Shown piece by piece: positions 5,869 to 23,866 of a DNA stretch of 64,000 nucleotides. Made by a program: the position numbers and the translations under genes. The stretch's first letter is position 1. Each line of letters begins with the position of its first letter. Source of the stretch: Alphaproteobacteria bacterium (lineage in GTDB: Bacteria; Pseudomonadota; Alphaproteobacteria; UBA6615); contig JAJFJA010000059.1 of assembly GCA_021774445.1 (NCBI GenBank), positions 155,830-219,829 of the forward strand. Direction: 5' to 3'. The notes under the pieces are model-generated. The model saw only the letters and a list, made by a program, of their open reading frames with translations. It did not search any database and was not told where the DNA came from.

Positions 5869-6413
5869 CACGTGTCGTCTTCATCATCGCCCTACTGCTG
5901 CCGCTGACCCTGCTGGCGGCCCGGCCGGCCGTGGCCGTAGAACCGGACGAGATCCTCGCCGATTCCGCGTTGGAAACCCGGGCGCGGGAGATCTCCAAGG
6001 GCCTGCGCTGCGTGGTGTGCCAAAACCAGTCGATCGACGACTCTAATGCCGAGATTGCCCGCGACTTGCGTATTCTCGTGCGCGAACGCCTGCTCCTCGG
6101 CGAGGACAACAAACAAGTCGTCAACTATGTTGTGGCCCGCTACGGCGATTATGTCCTCCTCAAACCGCCCTTCCGCCTGTCGACCTCCGCTTTGTGGTTG
6201 GGCCCGCCGATCATGACCGTGCTCGCCATCCTCGTCGTCTTTTTCGCTTATCGCAGCATGCGCAACAGCCAGCCCATTGGCCATGTCGAACCCCTGTCTC
6301 CCGCCGACCGCCGGCGCCTAGACGCGCTCGTCGATCAAGAGATCGACCGGCAGGCCCGGTCCGAACCGTCCGCGATTCCCGCCTCCGAGCTGCGCCGCAA
6401 CGATCACGGCTAA
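5865..6413 (+). CDS. ccmH: cytochrome c-type biogenesis protein CcmH
   Basis: signal peptide plus LRCVVCQNQSIDDS (CXXC) motif; ATGA overlap with ccmG. Confidence 0.8.
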   Translation: MTRVVFIIALLLPLTLLAARPAVAVEPDEILADSALETRAREISKGLRCVVCQNQSIDDSNAEIARDLRILVRERLLLGEDNKQVVNYVVARYGDYVLLKPPFRLSTSALWLGPPIMTVLAILVVFFAYRSMRNSQPIGHVEPLSPADRRRLDALVDQEIDRQARSEPSAIPASELRRNDHG

Positions 6414-7765
6414 TGGCACTCTGGCTCAGCCTTGGCGGCCTCGCGGCGGTCGTTCTGCTCCTGCTGTTGCGGCCTATGTTAAGCGCCGGCGGCGCCGTCG
6501 GGGCCAGCCGTGCCGAACACGATCTTGAGGTTTTCCGGGCTCAGTTGAAGGAGCTCGACCGCGACCGCGACCGCGGTTTGCTGCTCGAACAGGAAGCGGA
6601 GGCCGCCCGTCGCGAAGTCGAACGACGTCTCTTGGCGGCCGGTCAACGGGCCAGTCAAAGTCGCACCATGAGCACTTTTGATTGGCGCGGCCGAACGGCG
6701 CTTGCGCTGCTTCTCGTTATCGCCCTACCGGCCGCGGCGACCGCCCTCTATTTGTCTCTCGGCTCCCCGGGCCTACCCGGACAGCCCTTTGCCAGCCGCC
6801 CGGCGCCGGTCCAGACCGCGCAGGACGACGAGCGCCTCGCCGCCCTGGCAACTTTCGAGCAGCGCAGCCGCGATAATCCCGCCGACACCGCCAACTGGCT
6901 CAACCTCGGCCGTGTCCATTTCGCGCTTGGCCGTTATGAGGATGCCGCCGCCGCCTTCGCACGTGCCATCGACCTGACTGACCGCCACCCCGGGGCCGTG
7001 TCTCTCTACGGCGAGGCCTTGGTCTATGCGGCCGAGGGCTTTGTGACCGAAGGGGCCCGCACGGCTTTCGGCGACGCCCTGGCCGCCGATCCCAACGAGC
7101 CGCGGGCACGCTTTTACCGCGCCCTCGCCGACTATCAAGCCGGCCGCCGGGAGCGCGCTCTTGATGACTGGCTCGATCTGGCCAGCGGCGCCCCGCCGGA
7201 CGCGGTCTGGCTGCCGGCCGTGCGCGATCGCATTCGGGCGGTGGCAACTGAGTTAGGCTTGGATGCCGAGGCCTTGATTGCCGAGGCTGTCCCGCAAGTC
7301 GCCCAATTGCCGCCCGACCAGCAGCTCGAGCAAATCCGCGGCATGGTCGACGGGCTGGCCGCCAGGTTGGCGGACACCCCTGACGATCTCGAAGGGTGGC
7401 TGATGCTCGGCCGGTCATATTTGGTTCTGGGCGAGCCCCGCAACGCCGTGGACGCTCTCGGCCGCGCCGCCGAGCTGGCGCCGGACCGGCCGCAAATCCT
7501 CGCCGCCCTGCTCGTCGCCACAATCACCGCGGCCGAGCAAGACCCGGCCCTTGCCGAAACCATCCCCGCACTGACCGACCGCGTTCTGAACCTCGACCCC
7601 GACAATGTCGACGCCCTTTGGTTCGCCGGCCTGGCCGCCGAACGGTCCGGTGACCCTACCGGCGCCGAAGCCTATTGGCGGCGTTTGCTGGCCCTATTGC
7701 CCGCCAGCGGCGAAGAATATCGCATCGTCACCGGCCGCCTCGACGCCCTAGCACGACCGCGCTAG
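6413..7765 (+). CDS. ccmI: cytochrome c-type biogenesis protein CcmI/CycH (TPR repeats)
   Basis: N-terminal TM plus TPR-like repeats (NWLNLGRVHFALGRYEDAAAAFARAI; GWLMLGRSYLVLGEPRNAVDAL); TAATG overlap with ccmH. Confidence 0.75.
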   Translation: MALWLSLGGLAAVVLLLLLRPMLSAGGAVGASRAEHDLEVFRAQLKELDRDRDRGLLLEQEAEAARREVERRLLAAGQRASQSRTMSTFDWRGRTALALLLVIALPAAATALYLSLGSPGLPGQPFASRPAPVQTAQDDERLAALATFEQRSRDNPADTANWLNLGRVHFALGRYEDAAAAFARAIDLTDRHPGAVSLYGEALVYAAEGFVTEGARTAFGDALAADPNEPRARFYRALADYQAGRRERALDDWLDLASGAPPDAVWLPAVRDRIRAVATELGLDAEALIAEAVPQVAQLPPDQQLEQIRGMVDGLAARLADTPDDLEGWLMLGRSYLVLGEPRNAVDALGRAAELAPDRPQILAALLVATITAAEQDPALAETIPALTDRVLNLDPDNVDALWFAGLAAERSGDPTGAEAYWRRLLALLPASGEEYRIVTGRLDALARPR

Positions 7766-7858
7766 TCCTCCGGCCCTTTTTTGTGACAGAATGACGCATC
7801 CGCGACGCCGGGGCACCTGGGGGGTGGTCCGGTGGTTCAGGCCACGTGGAGAGCGGTT

Positions 7859-8290
7859 ATGAATGTAAAGACCATATTGAACGCCAAGGGCAGCCGCGTT
7901 GAAACGATCCGCCCGACAGAAACCATCGCCGAGGCAGTGAAACGGCTCCGCCAACACAACCTTGGTGCCCTGATCGTCAGCGACGGCGGCAGCACCGTCG
8001 GCGGCATCATCTCTGAGCGCGACATCATTCGGGCTTTGGCCACCACCGGGGCCGGCATCTTGCAGATGCAGGTGGGTGAATTGATGACGGCAAACGTCCA
8101 TACCTGCGCGCCGGATGATACCGTCGCCAATATCATGGGCACCATGACGGCAAAGCGCATTCGCCATCTGCCGGTCGTCGCAGACGGCGCGCTGTGCGGC
8201 GTCATTAGTATCGGCGATGTCGTCAAGGTAAGGCTGGAGGAAGTCGAGTCCGAGGCGCACGCCTTACGCGACTATATCTCCAGCGGCTGA
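7859..8290 (+). CDS. CBS domain pair protein
   Basis: two CBS-like segments (GALIVSDGGSTVGGIISERDIIRAL; HLPVVADGALCGVISIGDVVK). Confidence 0.7.
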   Translation: MNVKTILNAKGSRVETIRPTETIAEAVKRLRQHNLGALIVSDGGSTVGGIISERDIIRALATTGAGILQMQVGELMTANVHTCAPDDTVANIMGTMTAKRIRHLPVVADGALCGVISIGDVVKVRLEEVESEAHALRDYISSG

Positions 8291-8490
8291 CCGACCGGTA
8301 GCCGCGGCGCCCGCGCCGGCAGAAATTTCGGGATCTCCCGCACCACACCGGCGGCGGCCGCCAGCAGGTCTTTGCGCCGCTGCGTCAGCACCAGTTGCTC
8401 GCGGCTCGGCACGCCGCCGACAATGGCGACCCGCGAAAGCCGCACTTCGATTTCGTCGAGTTCATCGGTGGAATGATTCGGCACGATGGT
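8272..8490 (-). CDS. hypothetical small protein (73 aa)
   Basis: ORF with GGAG about 10 nt upstream of ATG; no recognisable domain; could be non-coding. Confidence 0.25.
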   Translation of the reverse strand, partial: TIVPNHSTDELDEIEVRLSRVAIVGGVPSREQLVLTQRRKDLLAAAAGVVREIPKFLPARAPRLPVGQPLEI

Positions 8491-8599
8491 CATGAGCGAA
8501 CGGCTCCATGGCAGACCCTGAAGACCCATCCACATTCCGCGATTATGGTTAATATTCCTTTACCGAGTCCCCCGGTTTGGTTTTCGCGGCCATCGGGCG

Positions 8600-9379
8600 C
8601 TAGTGGGTGACCGGCGGTTCCTGCGCACCGGTCATGATGGCAACCGCATCGGACATTGAGAATTCCTTCGGATTGAGGATGGCGATGCGTTTCCCCAGCC
8701 GATGAATGTGAATACGGTCGGCGACTTCGAAGACATGCGGCATGTTATGGCTGATCAGCACGATCGGCAGGCCGCGCTTTGTCTTCACATCGAGCATCAG
8801 CTCCAACACTTTGCGGGATTCTTTTACGCCGAGCGCGGCGGTCGGCTCGTCCATGATGATGACCCGGCTGCCGAAAGCCGTTGCCCGCACCACGGCAACG
8901 CCTTGACGTTGCCCGCCCGACAACGTCTCCACCGCCTGTGTAATGCTCTGAATGGTGAGCAGACCGAGCGCATTGAGGTGCTGGCGCGCTTCATTTTGCA
9001 TGGCGGTGCGGTCGAGCGTCCGGAACACTTTGCCCAGCACCCCTGCCTTCCGCCGCTCGCGGCCGAGGAACAGGTTGTCGGCAATCGACAGCGCTGGCGA
9101 TAAGGCCAGGTCCTGGTACACCGTCTCGATGCCGACGGCCCTGGCCTCCATCGGCGAGCGGAAATGAACCGGCTGACCGTCCAGGCGAATCTCGCCCTGT
9201 TCCGGCGCGACCGCGCCGGCCAAGGCTTTGATCAGCGTCGACTTACCGGCACCGTTGTCGCCGATAACACCAAGGATCTCGTTCGGCATGAGATCGAAAT
9301 CGGCATGATCGAGGGCCACGACACGGCCGTAGCGCTTGACCAGGCCGCGCGCCGACAGGATCGGTTGCCCCTCCGTCAC
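8600..9379 (-). CDS. sugar ABC transporter ATP-binding protein (single-domain, FrcA-like)
   Basis: Walker A GDNGAGKST, signature LSGGQRQ, Walker B IIMDEPTAAL; GTG start overlapping permease stop (GTGA); upstream ORF extension judged artefact. Confidence 0.8.
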   Translation of the reverse strand: MTEGQPILSARGLVKRYGRVVALDHADFDLMPNEILGVIGDNGAGKSTLIKALAGAVAPEQGEIRLDGQPVHFRSPMEARAVGIETVYQDLALSPALSIADNLFLGRERRKAGVLGKVFRTLDRTAMQNEARQHLNALGLLTIQSITQAVETLSGGQRQGVAVVRATAFGSRVIIMDEPTAALGVKESRKVLELMLDVKTKRGLPIVLISHNMPHVFEVADRIHIHRLGKRIAILNPKEFSMSDAVAIMTGAQEPPVTH

Positions 9380-10452
9380 GTGGAGACCTTTCGTATCCAC
9401 TGGTCCAGGGCGACCGCGACAATGATCAGCAGACCGATGGTAAACTCCTGCCACAGTGCGTCGGCGCCGGCCAGCGCCAGGCCGTTGCGGAACACCCCAA
9501 CGATCAGCGCGCCGATAAGCGTCCCGACGATCGATCCGCGGCCGCCAAACAGGCTTGTACCGCCGATCACCACGGCAGTGATCGAATCGAGGTTGGCATT
9601 GCCGCCGGATATCGGGCTGACCGCGCCGATACGACCGATCAGGGCCCAGCTCGCGGTCGCACAGATCAAGCCGGCGATCGAATACACGGCGATCAGCGTG
9701 CGTTTGGTGTTGATACCTGCGAGTCGTGCCGCATCCGGGTCGTCGCCGGTTGCATAAATATGGCGGCCGAACGCCGTTCGATTGAGCACATACCAAACCA
9801 GCCCGGCGAGCACGATCATCAACAGCGACCCATAGGTCACTCGGGCGCCACCGACTTGAAACGCCGTTCCCATATATTGCAGCAGCGGCGCGCTCGCCTC
9901 GATGTCCTGCTGACGAATTGTCGTACTGCGCGAATACCCTAGGATCAGCGCCCCGAATATGCTCCAGGTCCCGAGCGTCACAATGAACGGCGGCAACCTG
10001 ATCAACGAGACCAGGGCACCATTGAAAAAGCCGCAAGCCACACCGGCCAACAATCCCAGGCCGAACGCGATCTCCGCCGGCACGCCGGAGATCACGGCGA
10101 GGCGACCCATGACGATCGACGCCAGTATCATGATGGCGCCGACCGAGAGGTCGATGCCGGCGGTGAGGATGATCAGTGTCTGCGCGGTCCCGAGAATGGC
10201 GACAATGGTGACCTGCTGCAGGACCAGCGATAAGTTAAAGGGCGCGAAGAAGCGGCCGCCGACGATCGAACTGAACAATATGACGGCGAGCGACAGCACG
10301 ATGAACGGCACCACTGTCGGATAGGCATGCAGGAAATGATGCAGGCGCCGCAGCACGGTATTGTCGTCGATCGCGAATTCCGCCGGCGCTGTCTCGGCTG
10401 ATGCGGCCTGCTCGTACGCCGTGGCGCCCGTCGCTTCTTCGGTACTGTTCAT
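9376..10452 (-). CDS. sugar ABC transporter permease (FrcC/RbsC-like)
   Basis: polytopic membrane protein with typical CUT2 permease sequence. Confidence 0.8.
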   Translation of the reverse strand: MNSTEEATGATAYEQAASAETAPAEFAIDDNTVLRRLHHFLHAYPTVVPFIVLSLAVILFSSIVGGRFFAPFNLSLVLQQVTIVAILGTAQTLIILTAGIDLSVGAIMILASIVMGRLAVISGVPAEIAFGLGLLAGVACGFFNGALVSLIRLPPFIVTLGTWSIFGALILGYSRSTTIRQQDIEASAPLLQYMGTAFQVGGARVTYGSLLMIVLAGLVWYVLNRTAFGRHIYATGDDPDAARLAGINTKRTLIAVYSIAGLICATASWALIGRIGAVSPISGGNANLDSITAVVIGGTSLFGGRGSIVGTLIGALIVGVFRNGLALAGADALWQEFTIGLLIIVAVALDQWIRKVST

Positions 10453-10478
10453 CTGACCGTAACCACCCAGCGGAATAC

Positions 10479-10516
10479 AAAAAAAGGAAGAGCAATCCTA
10501 TCGAGATTGCTCTTCC
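10479..10516 (-). terminator. intercistronic stem-loop plus U-tract after the binding-protein gene
   Basis: perfect inverted repeat ggaagagcaatc / gattgctcttcc (10486..10516) followed on the minus strand by a tttttttg tract (10479..10485). Confidence 0.5.
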
Positions 10517-10559
10517 AGTGTCGATAATTAGTTCGTTGTCGACTCAAGGGGCGGGAATA

Positions 10560-11591
10560 TCAGCCCCAGCAAAGCTTTAGGCCTTCCGCCGAAGTAATCG
10601 ACTCAACACCCTCGACCGGCTGGTCCGTGATGAGCTTGACGCCGGTATCGAAGAACGCCAGGCCAGGCGTCGGTGCCGGCTTAGTGCCGGAGTTGGCGAA
10701 CTCGACCACGGCCTCGACACCCAGTGACGCCATCAGCAACGGGAACTGCATTGAGGTTGCGCCGATCACGCCGTCTTTGACGTTCGCGACTCCCGGGCAA
10801 CCACCGTCGACCGAGGTCATTACCACATCGTCCTGCCGGCCAGCGGCCTTCAGCGCCTCGAAAGCACCGGCGGCGGTGGGCTCGTTGATGGTGTAGACGA
10901 CGTTGATGCCGGGCTCCTTCTGCAGCAGGTTTTCCATACCCGTGCGGCCACCTTCCTCGGCGCCTTTGCCCCACTGATGACCGGCGATGCGCTCGTCGGT
11001 TTCCTCGCCGTACCGGCTCGGATCCATGATATCGATACCGAAGCCTTGCATGAAACCTTGGTCGCGCGCGGCATCCACTGTTGGCTGATTCTCCAGCGCG
11101 TCGAGGAAGGCGATCTTCGCATTCGCCGCCGCATCGTCACCAAGGGTCTTGGCCGCCCAGGCACCGATCAGCTCTCCGGCCCGGAAATTATCCGTGGCGA
11201 AGGTCGCATCGGCCGCATCGATCGGATCCAGCGGCGTATCGAGGGCGATGACCAAGATCCCCGCCTCGCGTGCTCTCTGGATCGTCGGCACGATTGCCAC
11301 CGTATCACTCGGGGTGATCAGGATACCCTTGGCGCCGGCCGCGATCAGGTTCTCCACCGCAGCGACCTGTGCGTCATTGTCGCCGTCGAATTTTCCCGCG
11401 AAGCTCTGCAGCGTGGCACCAAGTTCCGCTGCCTTCGCCTCCGCACCTTCCTTCATCTTCACGAAGAACGGATTGTTGTCGGTCTTCGTGACCAAACCGA
11501 TCAGCACATCTCCCTGTGCCCAGGCAGAGGCCCCGCTAAGCACCATCAACGCAGCGGTTGCCGCCGATATCTTCAACATTTTCGATAACAT
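10560..11591 (-). CDS. sugar ABC transporter periplasmic substrate-binding protein (FrcB/RbsB-like)
   Basis: signal peptide ending ASAWAQG, periplasmic binding protein type I fold sequence (ILITPSD, VIALDTP). Confidence 0.8.
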
Positions 11592-11754
11592 TGATCCCTC
11601 CCGATTGGATGCATGGCATCTCTTCTTTAGGTTCGCCTATCGAATGTTGGTTCGATCCTAAGCGACCCCGCGTAAGCACCACGATTGTCCGCGTTTCGAA
11701 CCCGCCACGCAACCCAATCGCTGCCCAACGATAGGGCCCTGGCGGTAAAATCGT

Positions 11755-11785
11755 CAATAACTAAATCAACCTGGTTTAATTATTG
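11755..11785. promoter_or_regulatory. candidate operator: 11-bp imperfect inverted repeat CAATAACTAAA-N9-TTTAATTATTG
   Basis: AT-rich palindrome in the divergent intergenic region between the transporter operon and the ROK regulator. Confidence 0.3.
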
Positions 11786-11874
11786 CTGATCCGAGCCGCT
11801 GCGGTTACGGTATCCATGTACAATCTGATCGGCGTCTGCCGCGACCCGCCGGTACATCAGTTGGGAGCAACCGA

Positions 11875-13113
11875 TTGCTTAGTAACGGCAACAACGGCCC
11901 AGCGACGGGACTGTCACATCGGAAATTGAGCCGCTCGACGGTTGTCAGCGGCGACCCCGCGCGCGTCTACAGCTACAATGAACGTGCCGTCATCCAAACC
12001 TTACGCACGCACGTGAGCGCGTCACGGGCAGACATCGCCCGGGCAACCCGATTGAGTGCTCAGACGGTCGCGGTGATTACCGACCGGCTTATGCGCGACG
12101 GGCTCGTCATCACCAAGGGACGCAAGTATGGCGGTGTCGGCCAACCATCGAAGCAACTCGCCCTGAACGCCGATGGCGCTTATTCCGTCGGTGTAAAGGT
12201 CGGCCGCCGCGGCGTCGACGTCGTCGCCATCGATTTCGCCGGCGATCTTACGAAGGACTATCATTGCGACGTCTCGTTCCCTGGCCCCGACAACCCGTTC
12301 GATACCGTCGCATCGACCATCGACAAAATCCGTCGCGGCCTGGGTGAGCGCTGGGAGCGCGTGACCGGCATAGGCATTGCGACGCCGTTCAATCCAGATG
12401 TTTGGAACAACGCCTGGTATGACGAACCCGGTGCCTCGAACGACGCGGAGCTCTACACCTGGAGCCACCTCGAGATCGGCACCCACATGCACGGACAATT
12501 CCGGCGCCCGACCTTCGTCGAGAATGACGGCACAGCCGCGGCAACTGCCGAACTGGTTTTTGGCAGAGGGCGGCAATTCGATAATTTTTTCTATATCTAT
12601 CTCGGCACCGCGCTTGGCGGTGGCATTGTCCTCAATGGCCGGAGCTATCGCGGCATCACCTCCAACGCCGGCGATTTCGCGCTGATGCCCGTGGCTGCCA
12701 AACCGGGCCAGCAGAATTTGCTGATGAACTACGTGTCCCACGCGTCGCTGCTGAGCTATCTCGCCGCACGGGGCTATCCGCACCTGTCACCGGCGGATCT
12801 TGCCGATCTGTACAAATCCCAGCCGGCTGTCTTCGATGACTGGCTCGACACCGCCGCCGATGCCCTGGTCGCCCCTCTATTATCGGTGATTTGCCTACTG
12901 GATACCGAGGCACTTGTCTTCGGCGGCCGCCTGCCGCGGGCCCTGACCACGGCCCTCACCGACCGCACCGACAGCCGCATTTCCGCCGCCGCGGACCGGC
13001 GGCTGCGCTTGCCGGAGTGTTGCGTCGGCGAAATCGACGACAACGCGCCGGCATTCGGCGCCGCCCTGTTGCCGTTCTACGCCGACTTCGCCCCGGATCG
13101 GGAACTGCTTTAG
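11875..13113 (+). CDS. ROK family transcriptional regulator
   Basis: N-terminal HTH (NERAVIQTLRTHVSASRADIARATRLSAQTVAVITDRLMRDGLV) plus ROK sugar-kinase-like body; TTG start per ORF track, exact start uncertain. Confidence 0.75.
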   Translation: MLSNGNNGPATGLSHRKLSRSTVVSGDPARVYSYNERAVIQTLRTHVSASRADIARATRLSAQTVAVITDRLMRDGLVITKGRKYGGVGQPSKQLALNADGAYSVGVKVGRRGVDVVAIDFAGDLTKDYHCDVSFPGPDNPFDTVASTIDKIRRGLGERWERVTGIGIATPFNPDVWNNAWYDEPGASNDAELYTWSHLEIGTHMHGQFRRPTFVENDGTAAATAELVFGRGRQFDNFFYIYLGTALGGGIVLNGRSYRGITSNAGDFALMPVAAKPGQQNLLMNYVSHASLLSYLAARGYPHLSPADLADLYKSQPAVFDDWLDTAADALVAPLLSVICLLDTEALVFGGRLPRALTTALTDRTDSRISAAADRRLRLPECCVGEIDDNAPAFGAALLPFYADFAPDRELL

Positions 13114-13235
13114 AAATCAACACGTTATCTACCACCACGGCGCGAACGTGCGCCGCGGTAATTTTTCGCGTAACGTCTGCCGGCACGGAGTCGCTAAGGC
13201 CCCGTCGTCACCCCGAGGCCCACGACCGCCGGTGC

Positions 13236-15413
13236 ATGGCACGACGAACCTTTCTCTTACCGGCACTTTTGCTGCTCGCGGCACTTGCGCTGAAGTTGGT
13301 CGACCCGCCTCTGCTCGAGAGTCTGCGTCTTACCGTCTTCGACACCTACCAGCGCTTGAGCCCGCGTCCTTATGAGCCGGCCCCGGTACGCATCGTCGAG
13401 ATCGACGACCCCTCCTTGCAGGAATTCGGACAATGGCCGTGGCCCCGCACCGTGGTCGCGGATCTGCTAACCCGGCTCCATCGGCTCGGCGCCACGGTGG
13501 TCGCTTTCGACATTGTTTTCTCAGACGCGGACCGCAGCTCGCCGGCCAGCATCGCCGAAGATCTGGCCGCCATTCCCGGTCTTGCGGATCTCGCGGTCCA
13601 GCTTGCCCGCCTGCCGGACAACGACGCCCGATTTGCCCAAGCCATCGCCGGCGGCCCCACCGTCCTCGGCTTCGCTCTCGCCGCCGGCGGCACCGCCCAT
13701 CCGCCGCCCGGCCTGGTAAGTCCCCTCGCTGTCGGCAGCGACGATCCGCGCCGTTTCGTCGCCAGTCTCCCCGCCGTATTGCCCAATCTGCCGCGCTTCG
13801 ACACCGCGGCAAGCGGCCTCGGCAGCATCAATGCGGTGCCCGACCGCGATGGTGTCGTGCGCCGCATTCCGTTGGTCTTGGGTCTCGGCGACCGCCTGGT
13901 CCCCACCCTCGCCACGGAGATCTTACGGGTTCACCAAAACAGCGCCGAGAATCCAACCTTGCGCATGACCCCGCGTGGCATCGCGATCGTCAAGATCGCC
14001 GGCCTGGAGATCCCGACCGATAGCGGCGGCAACGTTTGGGGCTATTTTACCCGGCCCCAGCCCGAGCGCCGCATTTCCGCGGCAGCGGTTCTGTCGGGCA
14101 CCATCGATCCGGCGCAAATCCGCGACCACATCATTCTCATCGGCCCGACGGCCACCGGCCTTGCGGATCAGCGCGCCACGCCTCTCGACAAAACCGGGCC
14201 CGGGGTCGCTATTCACGCCCAAGCGTTGGAACAGATCCTTCTTGGCGCCTTTCTCAGCCGGCCGAACTGGGCGCCGCCTCTCGAGCTTGGTTATACCCTG
14301 GTCCTCGGCCTCTTACTCATCCTGCTCTTGCCCCGCCTCGGCCCGCTGCCCTGCGCCGGGCTCGGTGCAATCGCGGCTTTCGGCGCCCTCGGCCTGTCGT
14401 GGTTGTCGTTTCGACAGGGCCAACTCCTGCTCGACCCCGTCGGCCCGTCCCTGGCCGTGCTTTTGGTTTACTTGGCGTCGACCCTGATGAGTTACATGCG
14501 GGCCGAGACCGAGCGCAGTTCGGTCCGCCGCGCCTTTAGTCGTTACGTTTCACCTGAGCTGGTCGAACGTCTGGCCGCGGACCGCTCCCAACTGCATCTC
14601 GGCGGCGAGCAGCGCACCCTAACTCTGATGTTCTGCGACATCCGCGATTTCACCGCCTTGTCCGAGCGGCAAACGCCACAATCCCTGACGAGCCTACTCA
14701 ATCGTTTCTTCACGCCGATGACCGACGTCGTGCTACGCCATCGCGGCACCATCGACAAATATATCGGCGATTGCATTATGGCGTTCTGGAATGCCCCGCT
14801 CGCCGATCCCCAGCATGCCGCGAATGCCTGCCACGCCGCACTCGAGATGCGCACCGCGCTCGCCGCGCTGAACGCCCGACTCACGGATGAAAATACGACT
14901 GCCGTCCCATCGACCTTGGCCTTCGGCATCGGCATCAACACCGGCGACGCCATGGTCGGCAATATGGGATCGGAGCAGCGCTTCGACTATTCGGCCCTCG
15001 GCGACGCCGTCAATCTCGCCGCGCGCATCGAGGGTCAGTGCAAGGTTTATGGCGTCGATATCATCATCAGTGAACACACGCACGCCCTGGCGCCTGATTT
15101 CGCCGCTCTCGAACTGGACCTCATCCGCGTCGTCGGCCGCGCCCAACCCATTCGTATCCACGCGCTGCTTGGCGACGACCGCCACCGATCTTCCCCGGAT
15201 TTCCAGGCGCTCGCCGACCAGCACCGTGAACTGATCGAGGCCTATCGATCGCGCCACTGGCCGCAAGCGCTCGAACGCCTGCAGGCGTGCCGCAGCCATC
15301 AGGTTCCCTTGCTGGACCCTGTCTACCAGCTCTATGAGCAGCGCCTCCGGGCTTACGCCGACACCCCGCCGCCCGACGGCTGGGACGGCAGCTTCGCGGC
15401 CACCGAGAAGTAG
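13236..15413 (+). CDS. CHASE2 sensor domain adenylate/guanylate cyclase (class III)
   Basis: signal/TM start MARRTFLLPALLLLAALA; CHASE2-like periplasmic region; C-terminal cyclase domain (LTLMFCDIRDFTALSE, YIGDCIMAFWNAP, GDAVNLAARIE); upstream part of ORF 12891.. overlaps ROK gene and is rejected. Confidence 0.8.
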   Translation: MARRTFLLPALLLLAALALKLVDPPLLESLRLTVFDTYQRLSPRPYEPAPVRIVEIDDPSLQEFGQWPWPRTVVADLLTRLHRLGATVVAFDIVFSDADRSSPASIAEDLAAIPGLADLAVQLARLPDNDARFAQAIAGGPTVLGFALAAGGTAHPPPGLVSPLAVGSDDPRRFVASLPAVLPNLPRFDTAASGLGSINAVPDRDGVVRRIPLVLGLGDRLVPTLATEILRVHQNSAENPTLRMTPRGIAIVKIAGLEIPTDSGGNVWGYFTRPQPERRISAAAVLSGTIDPAQIRDHIILIGPTATGLADQRATPLDKTGPGVAIHAQALEQILLGAFLSRPNWAPPLELGYTLVLGLLLILLLPRLGPLPCAGLGAIAAFGALGLSWLSFRQGQLLLDPVGPSLAVLLVYLASTLMSYMRAETERSSVRRAFSRYVSPELVERLAADRSQLHLGGEQRTLTLMFCDIRDFTALSERQTPQSLTSLLNRFFTPMTDVVLRHRGTIDKYIGDCIMAFWNAPLADPQHAANACHAALEMRTALAALNARLTDENTTAVPSTLAFGIGINTGDAMVGNMGSEQRFDYSALGDAVNLAARIEGQCKVYGVDIIISEHTHALAPDFAALELDLIRVVGRAQPIRIHALLGDDRHRSSPDFQALADQHRELIEAYRSRHWPQALERLQACRSHQVPLLDPVYQLYEQRLRAYADTPPPDGWDGSFAATEK

Positions 15414-15581
15414 TACCGCGAACTATTAGCGGCACCCCTTTCGGCGTGTCCTTTCGCCTGCTTGGACTCATCGCTCTGCGTCGCGCTAAGATGAATGACA
15501 AGGCAGCAACCAAGGCTGTCGAAAAAAAGCGACCGTGGGAGGAATTTGGTGCACGCCTGGTCCGTTCGCCGGAAAAAAGTG

Positions 15582-16991
15582 ATGCCGGCGCTGCGTTGCA
15601 CGGCCGTCGCAGCGGCCGCGCTGATGGCGGTTCTCGTCGGCTCGACCGCCGAGGCGGCTCAGACCGTCGAGCGTATCGGCAGCGCCATCCAGATCGTGCA
15701 AACGGTCACCGGCGAGATCGAGGCCAATTTCCGCTATCTGATCTTGCAGGACCCGGTTTTTCAGGACGAGGTCATCGCCACCAAGCCCGGCAGTGCTTCG
15801 CGCATCGTCTTCCGCGACAATACCGAACTTCAAGTCGGCCCGGAGGCCCGGATCACCCTCGACAATTTCGTTTTCGACCCCGATCCCTCGGTTGCACGTT
15901 TTGTGATTTCCGCCTTCGACGGCGTCTTCCGCTTCGCCACCGGCAAGCTGGCCAAAACCGCCTATCAAATCGAAACGCCGACTGCGGTCATTGGCGTGCG
16001 TGGTACCACTTTTGCGAGCATCTTCGGCCCGTCCGGTGAGCAGGTCATTTTGCTGGAGGAGGGCGTTGCGGTCACCGTGCGGGACCGCAGCGGCGGCCCT
16101 GTTCGCACCCTGTCCCAGCCGGGCTTGTCGGTGACCATCATCGCCGACGGTTTCGTCACCGAGCCCGCGCCGCCGCCGGAATGGGCGCTGGAAAAATTGC
16201 GCGAGCTGAATGCCTTGCTCGTCACCCTCGACGTGCTGATTAGGGGCGATGATCTCGACGACGACCCGCCATCCACCCCACCGCCGGCGCCCCTGCCGCC
16301 GGTGCAGGAAGCGGCGCTGCCCGCCGCCCCGCCGCCGGTCGTCGAGGCCCCCCATATTCCCGCCCCAAAACCGGCGCCGGAAAAGGCCGATCACAAGCCA
16401 TATCCGAAACCCGAGGCCAAGCCGCGACAACGTGCCTTGCGCCGCGCCGACGCCGTCGCCGCCGCGCCGGCGCACGACCACGGCCTGCCCCGGGCCAAGG
16501 ACCGCGCCGACATTCGCGCCGCCGGCGACACGGCGCACGGCAATGGTCGGTCGGACATTCGCATCGAACGTCGCGGTCGACGCGCCCGCGAGCATATCGA
16601 GCGCGATGACGGCGACGATCGGGAGTATCACGCCGATCGGCTGGAGCCGCGCCCGGCAACACCCGGCGGCGACGGGCGAGACACTCCTGCGCCCGCCACG
16701 GCCCGGCACGACCAGCAGCGAGCGGGAGACATCGCTTATAGCCGCGACACGCGCGGTCGCCATGAGCGCACCGGTCGATCCCGAAGCAATCGCGAGTACC
16801 AAAGCGTCAACACAAATCGCAGCGGCGATCGGGACCGCGGCAATCATGACCGTGGCAGAAGCGGCGGCAGCCAGGACAACACGAGTTCCCACGGCGATAA
16901 CGACCGGGGCGGCCGTGACCAGGCCAGCCGGGATCGCGGCGATTCCGGCCACGACCGTGGTGATCGTGGTCGCGGCGGGCGGCGGCGCTAG
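15582..16991 (+). CDS. secreted FecR-domain protein with Pro-rich linker and long Arg/Asp/Gly-rich low-complexity C-terminus
   Basis: signal peptide (AAALMAVLVGSTAEAAQ), FecR-type motif VIGVRGTTF, then PPSTPPPAPLPP... and RDRGDSGHDRGDRGRGGRRR tail. Confidence 0.65.
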   Translation: MPALRCTAVAAAALMAVLVGSTAEAAQTVERIGSAIQIVQTVTGEIEANFRYLILQDPVFQDEVIATKPGSASRIVFRDNTELQVGPEARITLDNFVFDPDPSVARFVISAFDGVFRFATGKLAKTAYQIETPTAVIGVRGTTFASIFGPSGEQVILLEEGVAVTVRDRSGGPVRTLSQPGLSVTIIADGFVTEPAPPPEWALEKLRELNALLVTLDVLIRGDDLDDDPPSTPPPAPLPPVQEAALPAAPPPVVEAPHIPAPKPAPEKADHKPYPKPEAKPRQRALRRADAVAAAPAHDHGLPRAKDRADIRAAGDTAHGNGRSDIRIERRGRRAREHIERDDGDDREYHADRLEPRPATPGGDGRDTPAPATARHDQQRAGDIAYSRDTRGRHERTGRSRSNREYQSVNTNRSGDRDRGNHDRGRSGGSQDNTSSHGDNDRGGRDQASRDRGDSGHDRGDRGRGGRRR

Positions 16992-17168
16992 CTGACCAAG
17001 CCTAATCGGCACGCCTGCCGATAGTTCTTGGCAGCCAACGCTTTGCTAGGTACCTCGGTAGAAATTAAGGCGACCTCGCGCTCGGAAATCGCCGCCGGCC
17101 CCTGCCTCGCGCCCGCCGTCTCCACCATGCTACCCTCCTCGGATTGATGAGCCAGGAGGGATCCAACC

Positions 17169-19904: not shown

Positions 19905-21191
19905 ATGCGCGTCGACATTCTCTATGGCAAAGGCAAGTTACCGGTCGATTTCGGCGCTGACCTGGACGTAACGGTCATCGCCAAGCGCGCCATGCCGCTG
20001 TTGCCCGATCCAACCGCGGCGATTGCGCGGGCATTGACCAATCCGGTCGGCGTGCCACCCCTGGGCGAGCTCGCCCGCGGCGCCAAATCCGCCTGCATCT
20101 TGATCTGCGACATTACCCGTCCGGTACCCAATGGCCTGTTTCTTCAACCAATGATTCGCGCGCTGCTCGCCGCCGGCGTGCCAGCGGATCGCATCACCGT
20201 GCTCATCGCCACCGGATTGCACCGGCCCAATCTGGGCGAAGAGCTGGCGGAGCTCGTCGGGGACCCCTGGGTGACGCAAACCGTCTCTGTCGTCAATCAC
20301 TATGCGCGCAACGACTCCGATCACCTGCTTGTCGGGACCACGCCGCGCGGCACGGTCGTTCGTTTGGATCGCCGCTTCGTCGATGCCGACGTGAAGATCG
20401 CCACCGGCTTGGTCGAGCCCCACTTCATGGCCGGCTATTCCGGCGGCCGCAAGGTTATCGCCCCGGGTGTCGCCCATGCGGAGACCATCACCACCTTCCA
20501 CAGCGCCCGCTTCATGGAGGATCAGAACGCCGCCAATTGCGTGTTGGACGGCAATCCCTTGCACGAAGAACAGCTCGCCATCATCGAGATGCTCGGCGGC
20601 GCCTTGGCGCTCAACACCGTGATCGATGAGGATCGCCGCCTCGCCTTCGTCAATTTCGGCGAGATCGTCGCCAGTCATTTGGCGGCGGTGGCCTACACGC
20701 GCGAATACTCGGAGCGTCCCATCGACCGCCGTTTCGGCGCCATCGTCACCAGCGCCGCCGGCTATCCCTTGGACAAGACCTACTATCAGACCGTGAAGGG
20801 CATGGTCAGCCCGATGAATATCCTCGCCCCCGGCGGCGACTTGATCGTTGCCTCGGCGTGCTCGGAAGGCATGGGGTCGCCGGAGTTCGTCGATGCCCAA
20901 AGACGCCTGGTCGAGAACGGCCCCGACGCCTTCATGCGCGAGATCACCGCCAAAACCCATGCCTCGGTCGACGAGTGGCAGACCGAAATGCAGCTCAAGC
21001 CCATGCGCATCGGCAACATTCATCTCTATACCGACGGCCTCGATTCTGCGGCCTTGTCCTTAACCGGTGTCGCCCATACCGCGTCCATTGCCGCGGCCGT
21101 GCGCGCCAGCGTCGCCCGCACCGGCGACCGCACCGTCGCCGTTATCCCCGAGGGCCCCTACGTCGTCCCGGTCCACCGGCCTGGACCGTAA
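19905..21191 (+). CDS. larA: LarA-family nickel-pincer-dependent 2-hydroxyacid racemase/epimerase homologue
   Basis: LarA N-terminal domain (DUF2088)-like sequence of about 428 aa, co-clustered with larC, larE and larB. Confidence 0.75.
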   Translation: MRVDILYGKGKLPVDFGADLDVTVIAKRAMPLLPDPTAAIARALTNPVGVPPLGELARGAKSACILICDITRPVPNGLFLQPMIRALLAAGVPADRITVLIATGLHRPNLGEELAELVGDPWVTQTVSVVNHYARNDSDHLLVGTTPRGTVVRLDRRFVDADVKIATGLVEPHFMAGYSGGRKVIAPGVAHAETITTFHSARFMEDQNAANCVLDGNPLHEEQLAIIEMLGGALALNTVIDEDRRLAFVNFGEIVASHLAAVAYTREYSERPIDRRFGAIVTSAAGYPLDKTYYQTVKGMVSPMNILAPGGDLIVASACSEGMGSPEFVDAQRRLVENGPDAFMREITAKTHASVDEWQTEMQLKPMRIGNIHLYTDGLDSAALSLTGVAHTASIAAAVRASVARTGDRTVAVIPEGPYVVPVHRPGP

Positions 21192-21202
21192 CGGCAGACG
21201 CC

Positions 21203-22411
21203 ATGCCGCGCCCGGTCGATCACCTGCATTTGGACCCCCTCGGCGGCATCGCCGGGGACATGTTCATCGCCGCCGTCCTGGATGCTTTTCCGGAATACGG
21301 CGACGGTGTCGAGACCGCGATGCGCGCCGCCGGGCTACCCGCGGACTGGCAGTTCTCCTGTATCGGACACACGGACGGACAACTCACCGGCCGTCGCATC
21401 GACATCGCCCACGACGGTATCGGTCCGGCCCAGCCGTCCGGTAATTACGCCGCCATCGTCGAAATGTTGGCGGCCACCGGCCTCGACCAAACCGTGCGCC
21501 GGCGCGCCCTGCATATCCTGGAACTATTGGCGCAAGCGGAAGCCGCCGTTCACGGCGTTCCGCTGGCCAACGTTCATTTCCATGAGATCGCCGACTGGGA
21601 CTCCATTTGTGATGTTGTCGGCGCGGCTTGGTTGATCGAGGCGTTAGGCGCGCCGACCTGGTCTATCGACCCCTTGCCTCGCGGCGGCGGCACGATCAGC
21701 ACCGCCCATGGCGTGCTGCCCGCCCCGGCCCCGGCGACGGTCAAGCTGCTCACCGGGTTCGCCATCCGCGATGACGGCATCATGGGCGAACGCGTCACGC
21801 CGACCGGCGCCGCCATCGTGCGAGCGCTGGCCCCCGGTCCCAACTTGCCGGACGGCCCACTGACCCTAACCGCCGAAGGCACAGGCTTCGGCCATCGCAT
21901 CTTGCCGACACCGGACGGCAGGCCGATGAGCAACATCTTGCGGCTCACCGCGTTCACGCGCCCGCCCTCGGACGTCGGGCCTCGGTCCGCTGGCCGGGTC
22001 GGGGTGATAACCTTCGAGATTGACGACCAATCGCCGGAGGATCTTGCCCTGGGTCTCGATCACCTGCGCGCCCGCCGCGACGTCCTCGACGTCTGCCAAT
22101 TCGCCGGCGTCGGCAAGAAAGGCCGCATGGTCATTCAGATCCAAGTGATCTGCGCCGACCATGCAGTGAATCCCATAACCGAAGCCTGCCTGGCACAGAC
22201 CGCCACCCTGGGCGTGCGCTGGCGCCTCGAGGATCGTCGGACGTTGCCGCGCGAAACCCTTGATCGGGCCGGTCTGCGGGTCAAGCGCGCCCACCGCCCT
22301 GGTGGCGACCTGACCGACAAGGCGGAAGCCGATGACCTGGCACGGAAAACGGCGGACTACGCCGGCCGCCGCCGAGCCCGGCGAGCCGCGGAGGGTGATG
22401 ATGACGGCTGA
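21203..22411 (+). CDS. larC: nickel insertion protein LarC (DUF111)
   Basis: start MPRPVDHLHLDPLGGIAGDMF typical of LarC; ATG at 21203 inside ORF 20858..22411. Confidence 0.75.
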   Translation: MPRPVDHLHLDPLGGIAGDMFIAAVLDAFPEYGDGVETAMRAAGLPADWQFSCIGHTDGQLTGRRIDIAHDGIGPAQPSGNYAAIVEMLAATGLDQTVRRRALHILELLAQAEAAVHGVPLANVHFHEIADWDSICDVVGAAWLIEALGAPTWSIDPLPRGGGTISTAHGVLPAPAPATVKLLTGFAIRDDGIMGERVTPTGAAIVRALAPGPNLPDGPLTLTAEGTGFGHRILPTPDGRPMSNILRLTAFTRPPSDVGPRSAGRVGVITFEIDDQSPEDLALGLDHLRARRDVLDVCQFAGVGKKGRMVIQIQVICADHAVNPITEACLAQTATLGVRWRLEDRRTLPRETLDRAGLRVKRAHRPGGDLTDKAEADDLARKTADYAGRRRARRAAEGDDDG

Positions 22412-23198
22412 CTTGGTGACCAGACTGCTCGCCGTCCTCGACGCGGCCGGTCCCCTCGCCATCGCCGTCAGCGGCGGCGTCGACAGCATGACCCTCGGCG
22501 TCCTCGCCGGCCGCCGCGCCGGCACGGCACCGCTGATCGTCCATGCCGTCTCACCGGCGGTCCCGCCCGAGGCGACGGCAAGAGTACGCCGCCACGCAGC
22601 TCTCGAGCATTGGGAACTGTGTGTCGGCGACGCCGGCGAGTTCGCCGATCCCACCTACCGCGCCAACCCGGTGGATCGGTGCTTTTACTGCAAGACCAGC
22701 CTCTATGGCTTCATCGCCGGCCTCACCGACCGCAGGATCGCATCTGGCACCAACTTGGACGATCTCGGCGACTACCGGCCGGGACTCCGCGCCGCCGACG
22801 ACCACGATGTCCTCCACCCCTATGTCGAAGCGGGTATGACCAAGGCGATGGTCCGTGCTTTGGCCCGCGCGTTGGCATTGACCGACATCGCCGAGCTGCC
22901 GGCCGCACCCTGCCTGGCCAGCCGCATCGCCACCGGCCTAGCGGTCACCGAACCTCGGTTGACCTTCGTGCATCTGATCGAACGGGAAGTGCAGCAAGCG
23001 CTTTCGCCGGCGGTCGTCCGCTGCCGGATCTTCCCCTCCGGCGTCGTCGTCCAACTCGACCCGGCAGCTCTTGCGCGCGTCTCGGACAGCTTAGGCGCGT
23101 CGCTGACCAAGCTTTGCAGCGCCCACGGTTACCGGCAGGCGCTGCGTTTCCTGCCCTACCGCCAGGGCAGCGCCTTTCTCCATCGAGGCACCCCATGA
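22398..23198 (+). CDS. larE: ATP-dependent sacrificial sulfur transferase LarE (PP-loop ATP pyrophosphatase)
   Basis: PP-loop SGGVDS, conserved Cys region CFYCKT; start overlaps larC end. Confidence 0.75.
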   Translation: MMTADLVTRLLAVLDAAGPLAIAVSGGVDSMTLGVLAGRRAGTAPLIVHAVSPAVPPEATARVRRHAALEHWELCVGDAGEFADPTYRANPVDRCFYCKTSLYGFIAGLTDRRIASGTNLDDLGDYRPGLRAADDHDVLHPYVEAGMTKAMVRALARALALTDIAELPAAPCLASRIATGLAVTEPRLTFVHLIEREVQQALSPAVVRCRIFPSGVVVQLDPAALARVSDSLGASLTKLCSAHGYRQALRFLPYRQGSAFLHRGTP

Positions 23199-23866
23199 CC
23201 GGCGACATCAGATTGGACCACGACCGCGCCACCCGCACCGGTATCGCCGAGGCCGTCTATTGTGACGGCAAGTCACTGGACCAAATCGTCCGGGCGCTGA
23301 CCGACACCAGGGGGCCGATGCTGCTGACCAGGCTCGCCGAGGCGCAATCCGAAGCCGTCGAACGCCAACTTGATGTGGCGCTCGACTACGACCCGATCTC
23401 CCGCACGGCGTTTTATCGCTTTCAACCCCAGCCCGCGAGCGCCGCGCGAATCGCCATCGTATCCGCCGGCGCCTCGGATCTTCCGGTCGCGCGGGAAGCC
23501 GCGCGCACCCTAGGTTTTCATCACCGGGCGGCCCATGAAATCGGCGATGTCGGGGTCGCCGGCCTTCATCGACTGCTCGACCAGTTGGACGTCATCGCGG
23601 CGCACCCCATTGTCATCGCCGTCGCCGGCATGGAGGGCGCGCTCTTCTCCGTCCTCGCCGGCCTGATCTCGTCCCAGATCATCGCCGCGCCGACCTCGGT
23701 CGGACACGGCGTCGCGGCCAACGGCGAGATCGCGCTCCGCTCGGCCCTCGCGTCCTGCGCCCCCGGCGTCACCGTGGTCAATATCGACAGCGGCTACCAA
23801 GCCGCCTGCGCCGCCATCCGCACCTTGCATGCGGCCGACAGATTAGCCGCGACGGCGCGGGATTGA
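23195..23866 (+). CDS. larB: nickel pincer cofactor biosynthesis protein LarB (PurE-like carboxylase/hydrolase)
   Basis: PurE-like fold sequence (IAIVSAGASDLPVAREAARTL...IAVAGMEGAL); ATGA overlap with larE. Confidence 0.75.
   Translation: MTGDIRLDHDRATRTGIAEAVYCDGKSLDQIVRALTDTRGPMLLTRLAEAQSEAVERQLDVALDYDPISRTAFYRFQPQPASAARIAIVSAGASDLPVAREAARTLGFHHRAAHEIGDVGVAGLHRLLDQLDVIAAHPIVIAVAGMEGALFSVLAGLISSQIIAAPTSVGHGVAANGEIALRSALASCAPGVTVVNIDSGYQAACAAIRTLHAADRLAATARD

Follow-up and report, generated by a model that had tools for sequence, protein, structure and literature searches.

FecR-domain proteins that are encoded beside CHASE2-domain cyclases have been described in Campylobacterota, where CHASE2, FecR, TPR and phosphodiesterase genes form clusters (PMC9239204), and in Sinorhizobium meliloti, where the FecR-domain protein SMc02177 takes part in the CHASE2-cyclase/Clr pathway and is needed for the cyclic AMP (cAMP)/Clr-dependent control of secondary infection, not for perception of the plant signal (PMC5498481). 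In the literature that we searched, SMc02177 is the only genetically studied FecR partner, with no mechanism assigned to it, and no ligand or activation mechanism of the CHASE2 sensor was found beyond the S. meliloti uL2/NsrA pathway. Here we analyze such a gene pair in a 64,000-nucleotide stretch of a metagenome-derived alphaproteobacterial contig (JAJFJA010000059.1, positions 155,830 to 219,829; hereafter the window). Directly downstream of its CHASE2 cyclase, the window encodes a FecR-domain protein with a C-terminal tail of about 247 residues. The CHASE2-FecR pairing itself is already known; the tail is the subject of this study.

Comparison with orthologues indicates that this tail is genuinely translated and that the odd-looking 3' half of the gene is coding sequence, which is of use for genome annotation. 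The tail is not uniform low complexity, being composed of a 52-residue Pro-rich spacer, a 42-residue motif block (motif block 1), a second motif block (motif block 2) and a 127-residue Arg/Asp/Gly polyampholyte (Table 1). The reading that we tentatively favour, at a probability somewhat short of even, is that the tail is a flexible periplasmic tether, combining docking motifs with a non-sticky spacer, which works with the CHASE2 cyclase. FecR proteins that partner CHASE2 cyclases typically carry a Pro-rich spacer and a fast-evolving disordered tail; here there are in addition two sharply conserved motifs, which provide handles for finding the envelope contacts of the accessory FecR protein. 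As a long, probably exported bacterial polyampholyte, the tail further offers a clean natural case in which the charge pattern is kept and the sequence is not. The scope of the finding is modest: it concerns six metagenomic sequences and a known gene pairing, and the function of the tail is one that we infer.

The window protein resembles the SMc02177-type partners of the CyaD1/CyaD2/CyaK-Clr pathway and of the Campylobacterota clusters in having a stand-alone, probably exported FecR domain, no anti-sigma part and an adjacent CHASE2 cyclase. Judged by domain, fold and synteny, it is best placed among the stand-alone FecR partners of CHASE2 cyclases. An S. meliloti FecR protein encoded beside a CHASE2 cyclase, at a locus not established as SMc02177 (FecR-domain identity ~35-39%), likewise ends in a Pro-rich linker and a charged, K/G/D/T-rich tail (...PGKRGLDKGKKGQDTGKKGQDTGKNGQLDTGTKKGRG). 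Compared with it, the window tail is about 3 times longer, is rich in Arg/Asp/Gly instead of Lys/Gly/Thr, and holds the motif R.DIRIER..R....H.ERD. The globular fold is shared with the FecR/PupR-type anti-sigma regulators, whose periplasmic domain mediates protein-protein signalling across the envelope and which, unlike the window protein, have no long low-complexity C-terminal tail. We considered and rejected the possibility that the window protein is itself a FecR-type anti-sigma factor: the ~36 residues of the putative signal peptide are all that precedes the conserved (V/I)ERIG, with no anti-sigma domain and no transmembrane helix. No extracytoplasmic function (ECF) sigma factor or TonB-dependent transducer is found among the annotated neighbouring genes, to which this check was confined.

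The FecR protein lies in an open reading frame (ORF) on the + strand (15495..16991, 498 aa), whose translation is the sequence quoted in the initial annotation of this DNA. The gene likely starts at the GTG at 15549 and runs to the stop at 16991, giving a 480-aa protein that agrees with the database gene model P0001 (NCBI source). Residue numbers below refer to the 469-aa form that begins at ATG 15582, and the Pfam range is numbered on the 498-aa ORF. The chain begins with a putative signal peptide and the FecR-type beta-sandwich, continues through one helix and an acidic patch, and closes with the tail; the FecR domain is succeeded by PPSTPPPAPLPPVQEAALPAAPPPVVEAPHIPAPKPAPEK, and the C-terminal end reads ...RDRGDSGHDRGDRGRGGRRR. 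From position 16240 on, the composition is 17.5% R, 13% D, 12% A, 11% P and 11% G. The initial annotation had described a tail of about 250 residues, first Pro-rich and then Arg/Asp/Gly-rich, on the FecR protein. Such a tail is indeed present in frame and does follow the FecR fold, but a conserved helix and the acidic patch DDLDDD intervene, and two conserved motifs lie inside it.

Table 1. Features of the cyclase-FecR gene pair and their coordinates in the window
Feature	Position	Strand	Basis or detail
CHASE2-domain adenylate/guanylate cyclase	13236..15413	+	Pfam CHASE2 1.1e-61, Guanylate_cyc 2.7e-20
Shine-Dalgarno GGGAGG	15537-15542	+	seven bases before GTG 15549; sequence reading
Sec-type signal peptide	15549..15656	+	cleavage after AEA (AEA/AQ); judged by eye
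FecR-type beta-sandwich	15672..16166	+	Pfam PF04773, AlphaFold, Foldseek
Conserved alpha-helix EWALEKLRELNALLVTLDVLIR	16179..16244	+	AlphaFold helix 200-221
Acidic patch DDLDDD	16248..16265	+	D/E-rich in 11/11 aligned relatives
Pro-rich spacer	16266..16421	+	52 residues, 38% Pro, AP/KP/EP dipeptides
Motif block 1 PRQRALRRADAVAAAPAHDHGLPRAKDRADIRAAGDTAHGNG (R-A-L-x-R-A ... G-L-x-R-A ... A-H-G-N)	16422..16547	+	orthologue alignment
Motif block 2 RSDIRIERRGRRAREHIERD	16548..16607	+	most conserved tail piece
Low-complexity polyampholyte, ends GRRR	16608..16988	+	127 residues
Stop codon TAG	16989..16991	+	sequence reading

An open frame across the tail is in itself weak evidence for translation, because other frames of this GC-rich DNA (~70% GC in the tail region) are also open, and it is the comparative evidence that decides. 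Both the +2 frame (16249..16995, 248 aa) and the antisense strand (15486..17012, 508 aa) are open over the whole tail; neither ORF has a Pfam match, and we rejected both as genes. They illustrate that long ORFs in the GC-rich DNA of the window are no proof of genes. The tail might then be an artefact that is never translated, if the frame were shifted, the assembly wrong or the reading carried beyond the true stop, and the chance opening of several frames, together with an atypical codon-position GC content in the tail (~0.8/0.6/0.75), would fit such an explanation. Against it, all five of the closest orthologues hold the tail in frame, with the same architecture and the conserved motifs, in metagenomes of five other samples that were assembled independently. 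Right before the stop, four of the five have G-[R/H]-[R/H]-R, whereas P0005 has GPHR; the record of P0004 is partial.

The pattern of nucleotide differences points in the same direction. We compared the window gene, codon-aligned, with four orthologous genes (loci L010, L006, L001 and L007). Over the 65-residue motif block (residues 281-345), the fraction of differing sites against the closest two (L010 and L006) is 0.55-0.58 at position 3 and ~0.2 at the other two positions; the folded domain gives 0.36-0.46 and 0.08-0.16, respectively. The excess at position 3 over residues 281-345 is weaker against L001 (0.53 vs 0.31), and against L007 it is absent (0.39 vs 0.30-0.35, over only 23 aligned codons). 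Position 3 is still the highest in the low-complexity end (0.60-0.71 vs 0.39-0.48), where the alignment is uncertain. By these comparisons, purifying selection clearly acts on both motif blocks. Since the relatives hold the tail in frame with divergence dominated by third positions, and the alternative frames are without family matches, we reject the artefact explanation, whose probability we regard as negligible. The tail thus lies upstream of the true stop and is kept in close relatives, contrary to what a sequencing or assembly error would give.

The folded part of the protein is well supported. The Pfam FecR domain (PF04773) covers residues 93-190 with 42.1 bits against a cut-off of 24 (E = 1.3e-10), and AlphaFold, run with a 15-sequence alignment, places strands over residues 31-195 with block-mean predicted local distance difference test (pLDDT) values mostly of 78-95, falling to ~62-71 near residues 31-50, 91-110 and 121-130. 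Foldseek matches this fold to the periplasmic domains of the anti-sigma regulators 4M0N (2e-7) and PupR 6OVK_R (4e-6), while a PDB search by sequence returned only spurious matches of repeat proteins to the beta-sandwich. In the helix that follows, the columns W201, A202, L209, L212 and L213 are invariant, short-tailed relatives included. By eye, the window protein and all orthologues show the parts of a signal peptide, with basic residues in the n-region, then a hydrophobic core and an AxA site, and the AxA sites of the orthologues directly precede the conserved (V/I)ERIG. The FecR protein is therefore probably soluble and periplasmic. As a separate observation, the sequence IGVRGTTF (residues 137-144, 15990-16010) holds an invariant GVRGT motif; its G-T recalls the Gly-Thr self-cleavage site reported for FecR/FoxR-type anti-sigma factors, to which it may correspond.

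A Pro-rich tract is present in all relatives, varying in length, and the six orthologues all keep its PPVQ core unchanged. As a polyproline-II helix, the window spacer would be ~16 nm long. TonB has a Pro-rich spacer that spans the periplasm, and the X-Pro run of the window protein (KP, EP, AP) resembles it in that, as polyproline II, it could cross much of the periplasm. Unlike TonB, the window protein has neither an N-terminal membrane anchor nor a TonB C-terminal domain (no Pfam or NCBIfam match), and disordered low complexity follows its spacer. Motif block 1 is ~70% identical in P0002-P0004, shorter in P0005 and deleted in P0006. Motif block 2 (R[SP]DIRIER..R....H.ERD) has 12 residues that do not vary among the six orthologues (R, D, I, R, I, E, R, R, H, E, R, D), and the motif is specific to this clade, occurring nowhere else among 163 family members.

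The tail as a whole is predicted to be intrinsically disordered. AlphaFold places no helix or strand after residue 221, most of the chain beyond residue 239 has a pLDDT under 50, and in charge-hydropathy space the tail falls on the disordered side (mean hydropathy 0.26-0.32 against a boundary of 0.42). Pfam and NCBIfam searches of the tail gave no family, and no metal-binding motif was recognized in it.

With a charged fraction above ~0.35, a low net charge and low charge segregation (kappa) as criteria, the low-complexity part is a strong, well-mixed polyampholyte. It contains 28 R, no K, 20 D, 4 E, 21 G, 11 S and 6 H, and 52 of its 127 residues are charged (fraction 0.41), for a net charge of ~+4 (28 R vs 24 D+E). 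Its charge patterning was tested against composition-matched shuffles: there are 3 same-charge neighbours where 10.5 +/- 2.6 are expected and 17 opposite-charge neighbours where 10.5 +/- 2.8 are expected, and charge segregation is below that of 99.8% of the shuffles. The initial annotation was thus right to describe an alternating-charge tract, and its expectation of disorder is borne out by the predictions above. For the other five orthologues, the fraction of shuffles at or below the observed segregation is 0.000-0.004. The tails of all six have a charged fraction of 0.29-0.43, a net charge per residue of ~0-0.07 and a kappa of ~0.08-0.12 (~0.11 for the whole window tail).

Between orthologues the low-complexity part is only 29-43% identical, with many indels, while its length and composition are kept: the five complete orthologues, the window protein included, hold ~100-135 low-complexity residues, and the partial P0004 shows 83. 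Because the mixing is kept in six of six at this level of identity, what is conserved is the physical charge pattern and not the sequence. A tandem-repeat search over the tail DNA found weak, short repeats only, so a recent microsatellite expansion is not what produced the tail. Within the 64-kb window the FecR tail is the only long mixed-charge tract, with 56 sliding 60-aa windows in which basic and acidic residues each number 12 or more; most other ORFs that reach this threshold look like out-of-frame reads.

Arg-rich disordered low complexity, alternating opposite charges and a modest enrichment of RG/GR dipeptides (15 vs 9.2 +/- 2.4 expected) recall the RS, RGG and mixed-charge (R-D/R-E) domains of eukaryotes. 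The likeness to RS/RG domains, which had been proposed for this tail, proves superficial: there are 7 RS/SR and 2 RGG in the 127 residues, and Arg-Asp alternation dominates. Unlike those domains, moreover, the tail belongs to an exported protein in which FecR is the only Pfam domain, without an RNA-binding domain or a context for serine phosphorylation. It had also been suggested that the tail might phase-separate; that it does so and builds periplasmic condensates we consider very improbable. A long disordered stretch that contains Arg and Gly, with a few RGG motifs, would suit that role, and signalling condensates of bacteria are a topic of the literature (PMC11326607); the usual drivers are nonetheless missing. 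The tail is almost devoid of aromatics (4 Tyr, no Phe, no Trp) and has no multivalent repeat architecture, and its charges do not form blocks and are more mixed than random (kappa ~0.1), which disfavours self-coacervation.

To place the tail within its family, we rely on several searches. A search of 5.8 billion proteins returned 17 relatives of the FecR protein, of which the closest five (P0002-P0006; 411-472 aa, 46-65% identity, all from uncultured Alphaproteobacteria) have tails of 180-246 residues. An exhaustive profile search of 1.84 billion representatives at 50% identity found 3579 relatives at E < 1e-10, the tail being covered by just two of the representatives, P0004 and P0005; the Arg/Asp-tailed clade is therefore very small. 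A genome scan of species representatives, which do not include the organism of the window, gave 5 loci, L001 being the sole tailed one, and a metagenome scan gave one distant locus; no further tailed orthologues came from either scan. Homologue searches with the tail alone or with the 65-residue block alignment returned no match, not even the query's own entry; this reflects how word-index searching handles biased or short queries and is uninformative on distribution, while a local phmmer search with the tail alone recovers P0001-P0005.

C-terminal extensions vary widely among the 163 retrieved relatives, with a median of 50 aa and at least 100 aa in 48 of the 163. Some tails are G/N-rich (P0022, P0011), some acidic and D/G-rich (P0019, P0050, P0090), and others basic, being K-rich in P0089 and R-rich in P0144, with P0073 and the S. 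meliloti protein also K-rich or R-rich. The Ensifer adhaerens protein carries, after a Pro-rich linker, a His-rich tail that ends in ...GHKHHDD, and P0160 an H/D/R/F-rich one (HHHHHHEWHFARDHHFDRHDHRF...DRFDRFDRFDRH; L016 15-1016), with a Sel1/TPR-repeat gene coming next. On these comparisons the Arg/Asp tail is a rare, lineage-specific, extreme version of the variable C-terminal tails of the family. The view that such a tail is unusual for an exported bacterial protein holds somewhat, but variable low-complexity tails are common among FecR proteins. No description of these tails or their motifs was found in the literature that we searched.

Individual tails deserve mention. The Lys-rich tail of P0089 (L015 369-1736) is ~230 aa long and contains KKKEKKAAKR repeats. 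At L008, which lies on the same contig as L009, two tandem FecR paralogues (6738-7802 and 8001-8816) stand downstream of one CHASE2 cyclase; of these paralogues, P0011 has a ~125-aa G/N/S-rich tail and P0007 a short Pro-rich tail ending in MMGPGD.

The diversity of tails bears on the idea, raised in the initial annotation for peptidoglycan, polyphosphate and nucleic acid and here taken to include lipopolysaccharide and nucleic acid outside the cell, that the Arg-rich tail binds a polyanion. Such binding would anchor or localize the FecR protein. In its favour, 22% of the residues in the low-complexity part are Arg, RG/GR dipeptides exceed expectation, the chain terminates in GRRR or GRHR, and some relatives are strongly basic (P0089, P0073, P0144 and the S. 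meliloti protein). At the same position, other relatives hold the acidic or uncharged tails listed above, and in the window protein itself the net charge over the 127 residues is close to neutral, with adjacent acidic residues neutralizing local positive patches. Polyanion binding is thus a distinctly unlikely main role.

A further possibility is that the His/Asp/Arg-rich tail responds to its environment, its dimensions or contacts shifting as the pH, ionic strength or divalent-metal content of the periplasm changes, and thereby modulating the cyclase. Periplasmic pH tracks the outside pH, the low-complexity parts of the orthologues hold 6-15 His and many Asp, and His-rich tails recur in independent relatives (P0160 and Ensifer adhaerens). 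However, His is moderate (~5%) in the window protein, the tail lacks a recognizable metal-binding motif, many relatives' tails are without His or any charge, and well-mixed polyampholytes are expected from polymer physics to respond little to salt. We regard this explanation as improbable.

We return to the tether that we tentatively favour. The tail would form the disordered C-terminal half of a Sec-exported, soluble periplasmic FecR protein that acts together with the upstream CHASE2 cyclase. The stiff Pro-rich spacer would hold the remaining tail away from the folded domain, and the two short conserved linear motifs would most likely dock on a partner. Candidates are the periplasmic domain of the CHASE2 cyclase, a site within the same protein (its FecR domain or its acidic patch) and an envelope component. 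The well-mixed Arg/Asp/Gly polyampholyte would stay expanded and non-sticky, serving as a flexible spacer or entropic bristle and not as a specific binding surface, and in that role its sequence and chemistry could drift freely between lineages. A parallel is offered by the stalks of staphylococcal surface proteins (the Ser-Asp repeats of SdrC and the Pro/Gly region of Aap), which are disordered and highly extended and show convergent physical behaviour despite divergent sequences (PMC10367597). Those stalks are Gram-positive, LPXTG-anchored and located between an adhesive domain and the wall, whereas the window tail is a free C-terminus of a Gram-negative periplasmic signalling protein, with conserved motifs embedded in it. 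By analogy, the same logic of convergent stalks could explain the differing tail chemistries of the FecR family.

Several observations weigh against the tether. The periplasmic placement of the protein rests on a signal peptide recognized by eye. AlphaFold gave no confident structure for motif block 2 and did not dock the motifs on the FecR domain. The charge alternation could partly stem from slippage of GAC-CGN-type units rather than from selection, although the DNA repeats are weak. In P0007-P0010, the closest relatives outside the clade (~49-54% identity overall, 56-61% where BLAST aligns them), the protein finishes with a Pro-rich tract of ~38-52 residues whose last letters are PGD. Since such close relatives do without it, the long tail is not essential to the core function of the family.

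The wider homology of motif block 1 is likewise no more than suggestive. A pattern of R[GA]LxRA followed, after ~10-20 residues, by GLxxA occurs behind the Pro-rich linker in 9 distant relatives and 4 clade members, that is, in 13 tails against 0.5 expected from shuffled tails; this enrichment is inflated, the pattern having been written after seeing examples. With a profile built from the nine non-clade relatives, P0004 reaches 13.7 bits, whereas the best of 3000 decoys reaches 9.4; the window protein gets only 6.2 bits, yet at the homologous position. Because this independent test supported it weakly, we lowered our claim of homology across the family.

A serious rival for the low-complexity part is that it is a tolerated, largely non-functional extension: a GC-rich, slippage-prone 3' region would have drifted into a long hydrophilic tail, persisting because disorder in the periplasm is cheap, in which the motifs alone matter, or nothing does. 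The tiny clade, to which the scans added no tailed members, the low identity and many indels of this part and the lack of a tail in the next-closest relatives all agree with this. Tail chemistry across the family looks unconstrained, and stops are rare in this DNA anyway. On the other side, the five complete orthologues keep their low-complexity length, four with the G-[R/H]-[R/H]-R end, charge mixing is non-random in six of six, position 3 exceeds positions 1 and 2 even in the low-complexity part, and purifying selection on both motif blocks is clear. We hold a tolerated extension to be unlikely.

A broader view, which we hold to be quite doubtful, is that CHASE2-associated FecR proteins share one as yet undescribed architecture of fold, helix, acidic patch, Pro-rich spacer, docking motif and tuned tail, with the tail chemistry gating cyclic-nucleotide synthesis. 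The tail might then set reach or sensing in the envelope (pH, ions, metals, or threading to the outer membrane), and the window clade might be the extreme charged case.

The gene neighbourhood supports the link with the cyclase. The cyclase gene ends at 15413, directly adjacent to the FecR gene. Its true start is probably at 13236 (MARRTFLL...), since the 840-aa ORF that opens at 12891 is likely over-extended in view of the 713-734 aa of the orthologous cyclases; the first ~115 residues of that ORF (12891-15413) are Arg/Pro-rich junk overlapping the end of the ROK gene (11875-13113). A CHASE2 cyclase lies immediately upstream of the FecR gene in the window, L006, L007, L001 and L008/9, and in L010 the catalytic domain of a cut cyclase is all that is visible upstream. 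The more distant P0027 and P0022 (loci L013 and L014) also adjoin a CHASE2 cyclase, in the case of P0022 a cut gene with the CHASE2 domain only. The cyclase is thus adjacent in every locus long enough to show it, and across the loci examined the conservation extends to no third gene beside the pair. The S. meliloti cyclase (L011 6061-8226, - strand) was identified from the ORF listing and Pfam, being omitted in the PLSDB gene table; the record itself (CP090106.1) is titled 'plasmid pSymB' though it is 3.72 Mb long, chromosome-sized.

In the window the neighbours of the FecR gene are a ROK regulator, the CHASE2 cyclase, an aldo/keto reductase and a sulfatase. An upstream order of CcmH/CycH-type TPR gene, sugar ABC transporter and ROK gene, then cyclase and FecR, is common to the window (6194-13113), L006 (1094-7600) and L007 (1-5585); in L006 and L007, the loci checked for it, a CBS protein follows the CcmH/CycH-type TPR gene. 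Downstream the genes differ: the window, L010 and L001 have an aldo/keto reductase there, L006 and L007 ABC transporters. A few genes further downstream, the window carries a nickel-pincer gene set of the lactate-racemase type (LarA-like, LarC-like Ni_insertion and AIRC/LarB-like; 19905-23866, + strand), which is syntenic in the closest relative, L010 (3247-7178).

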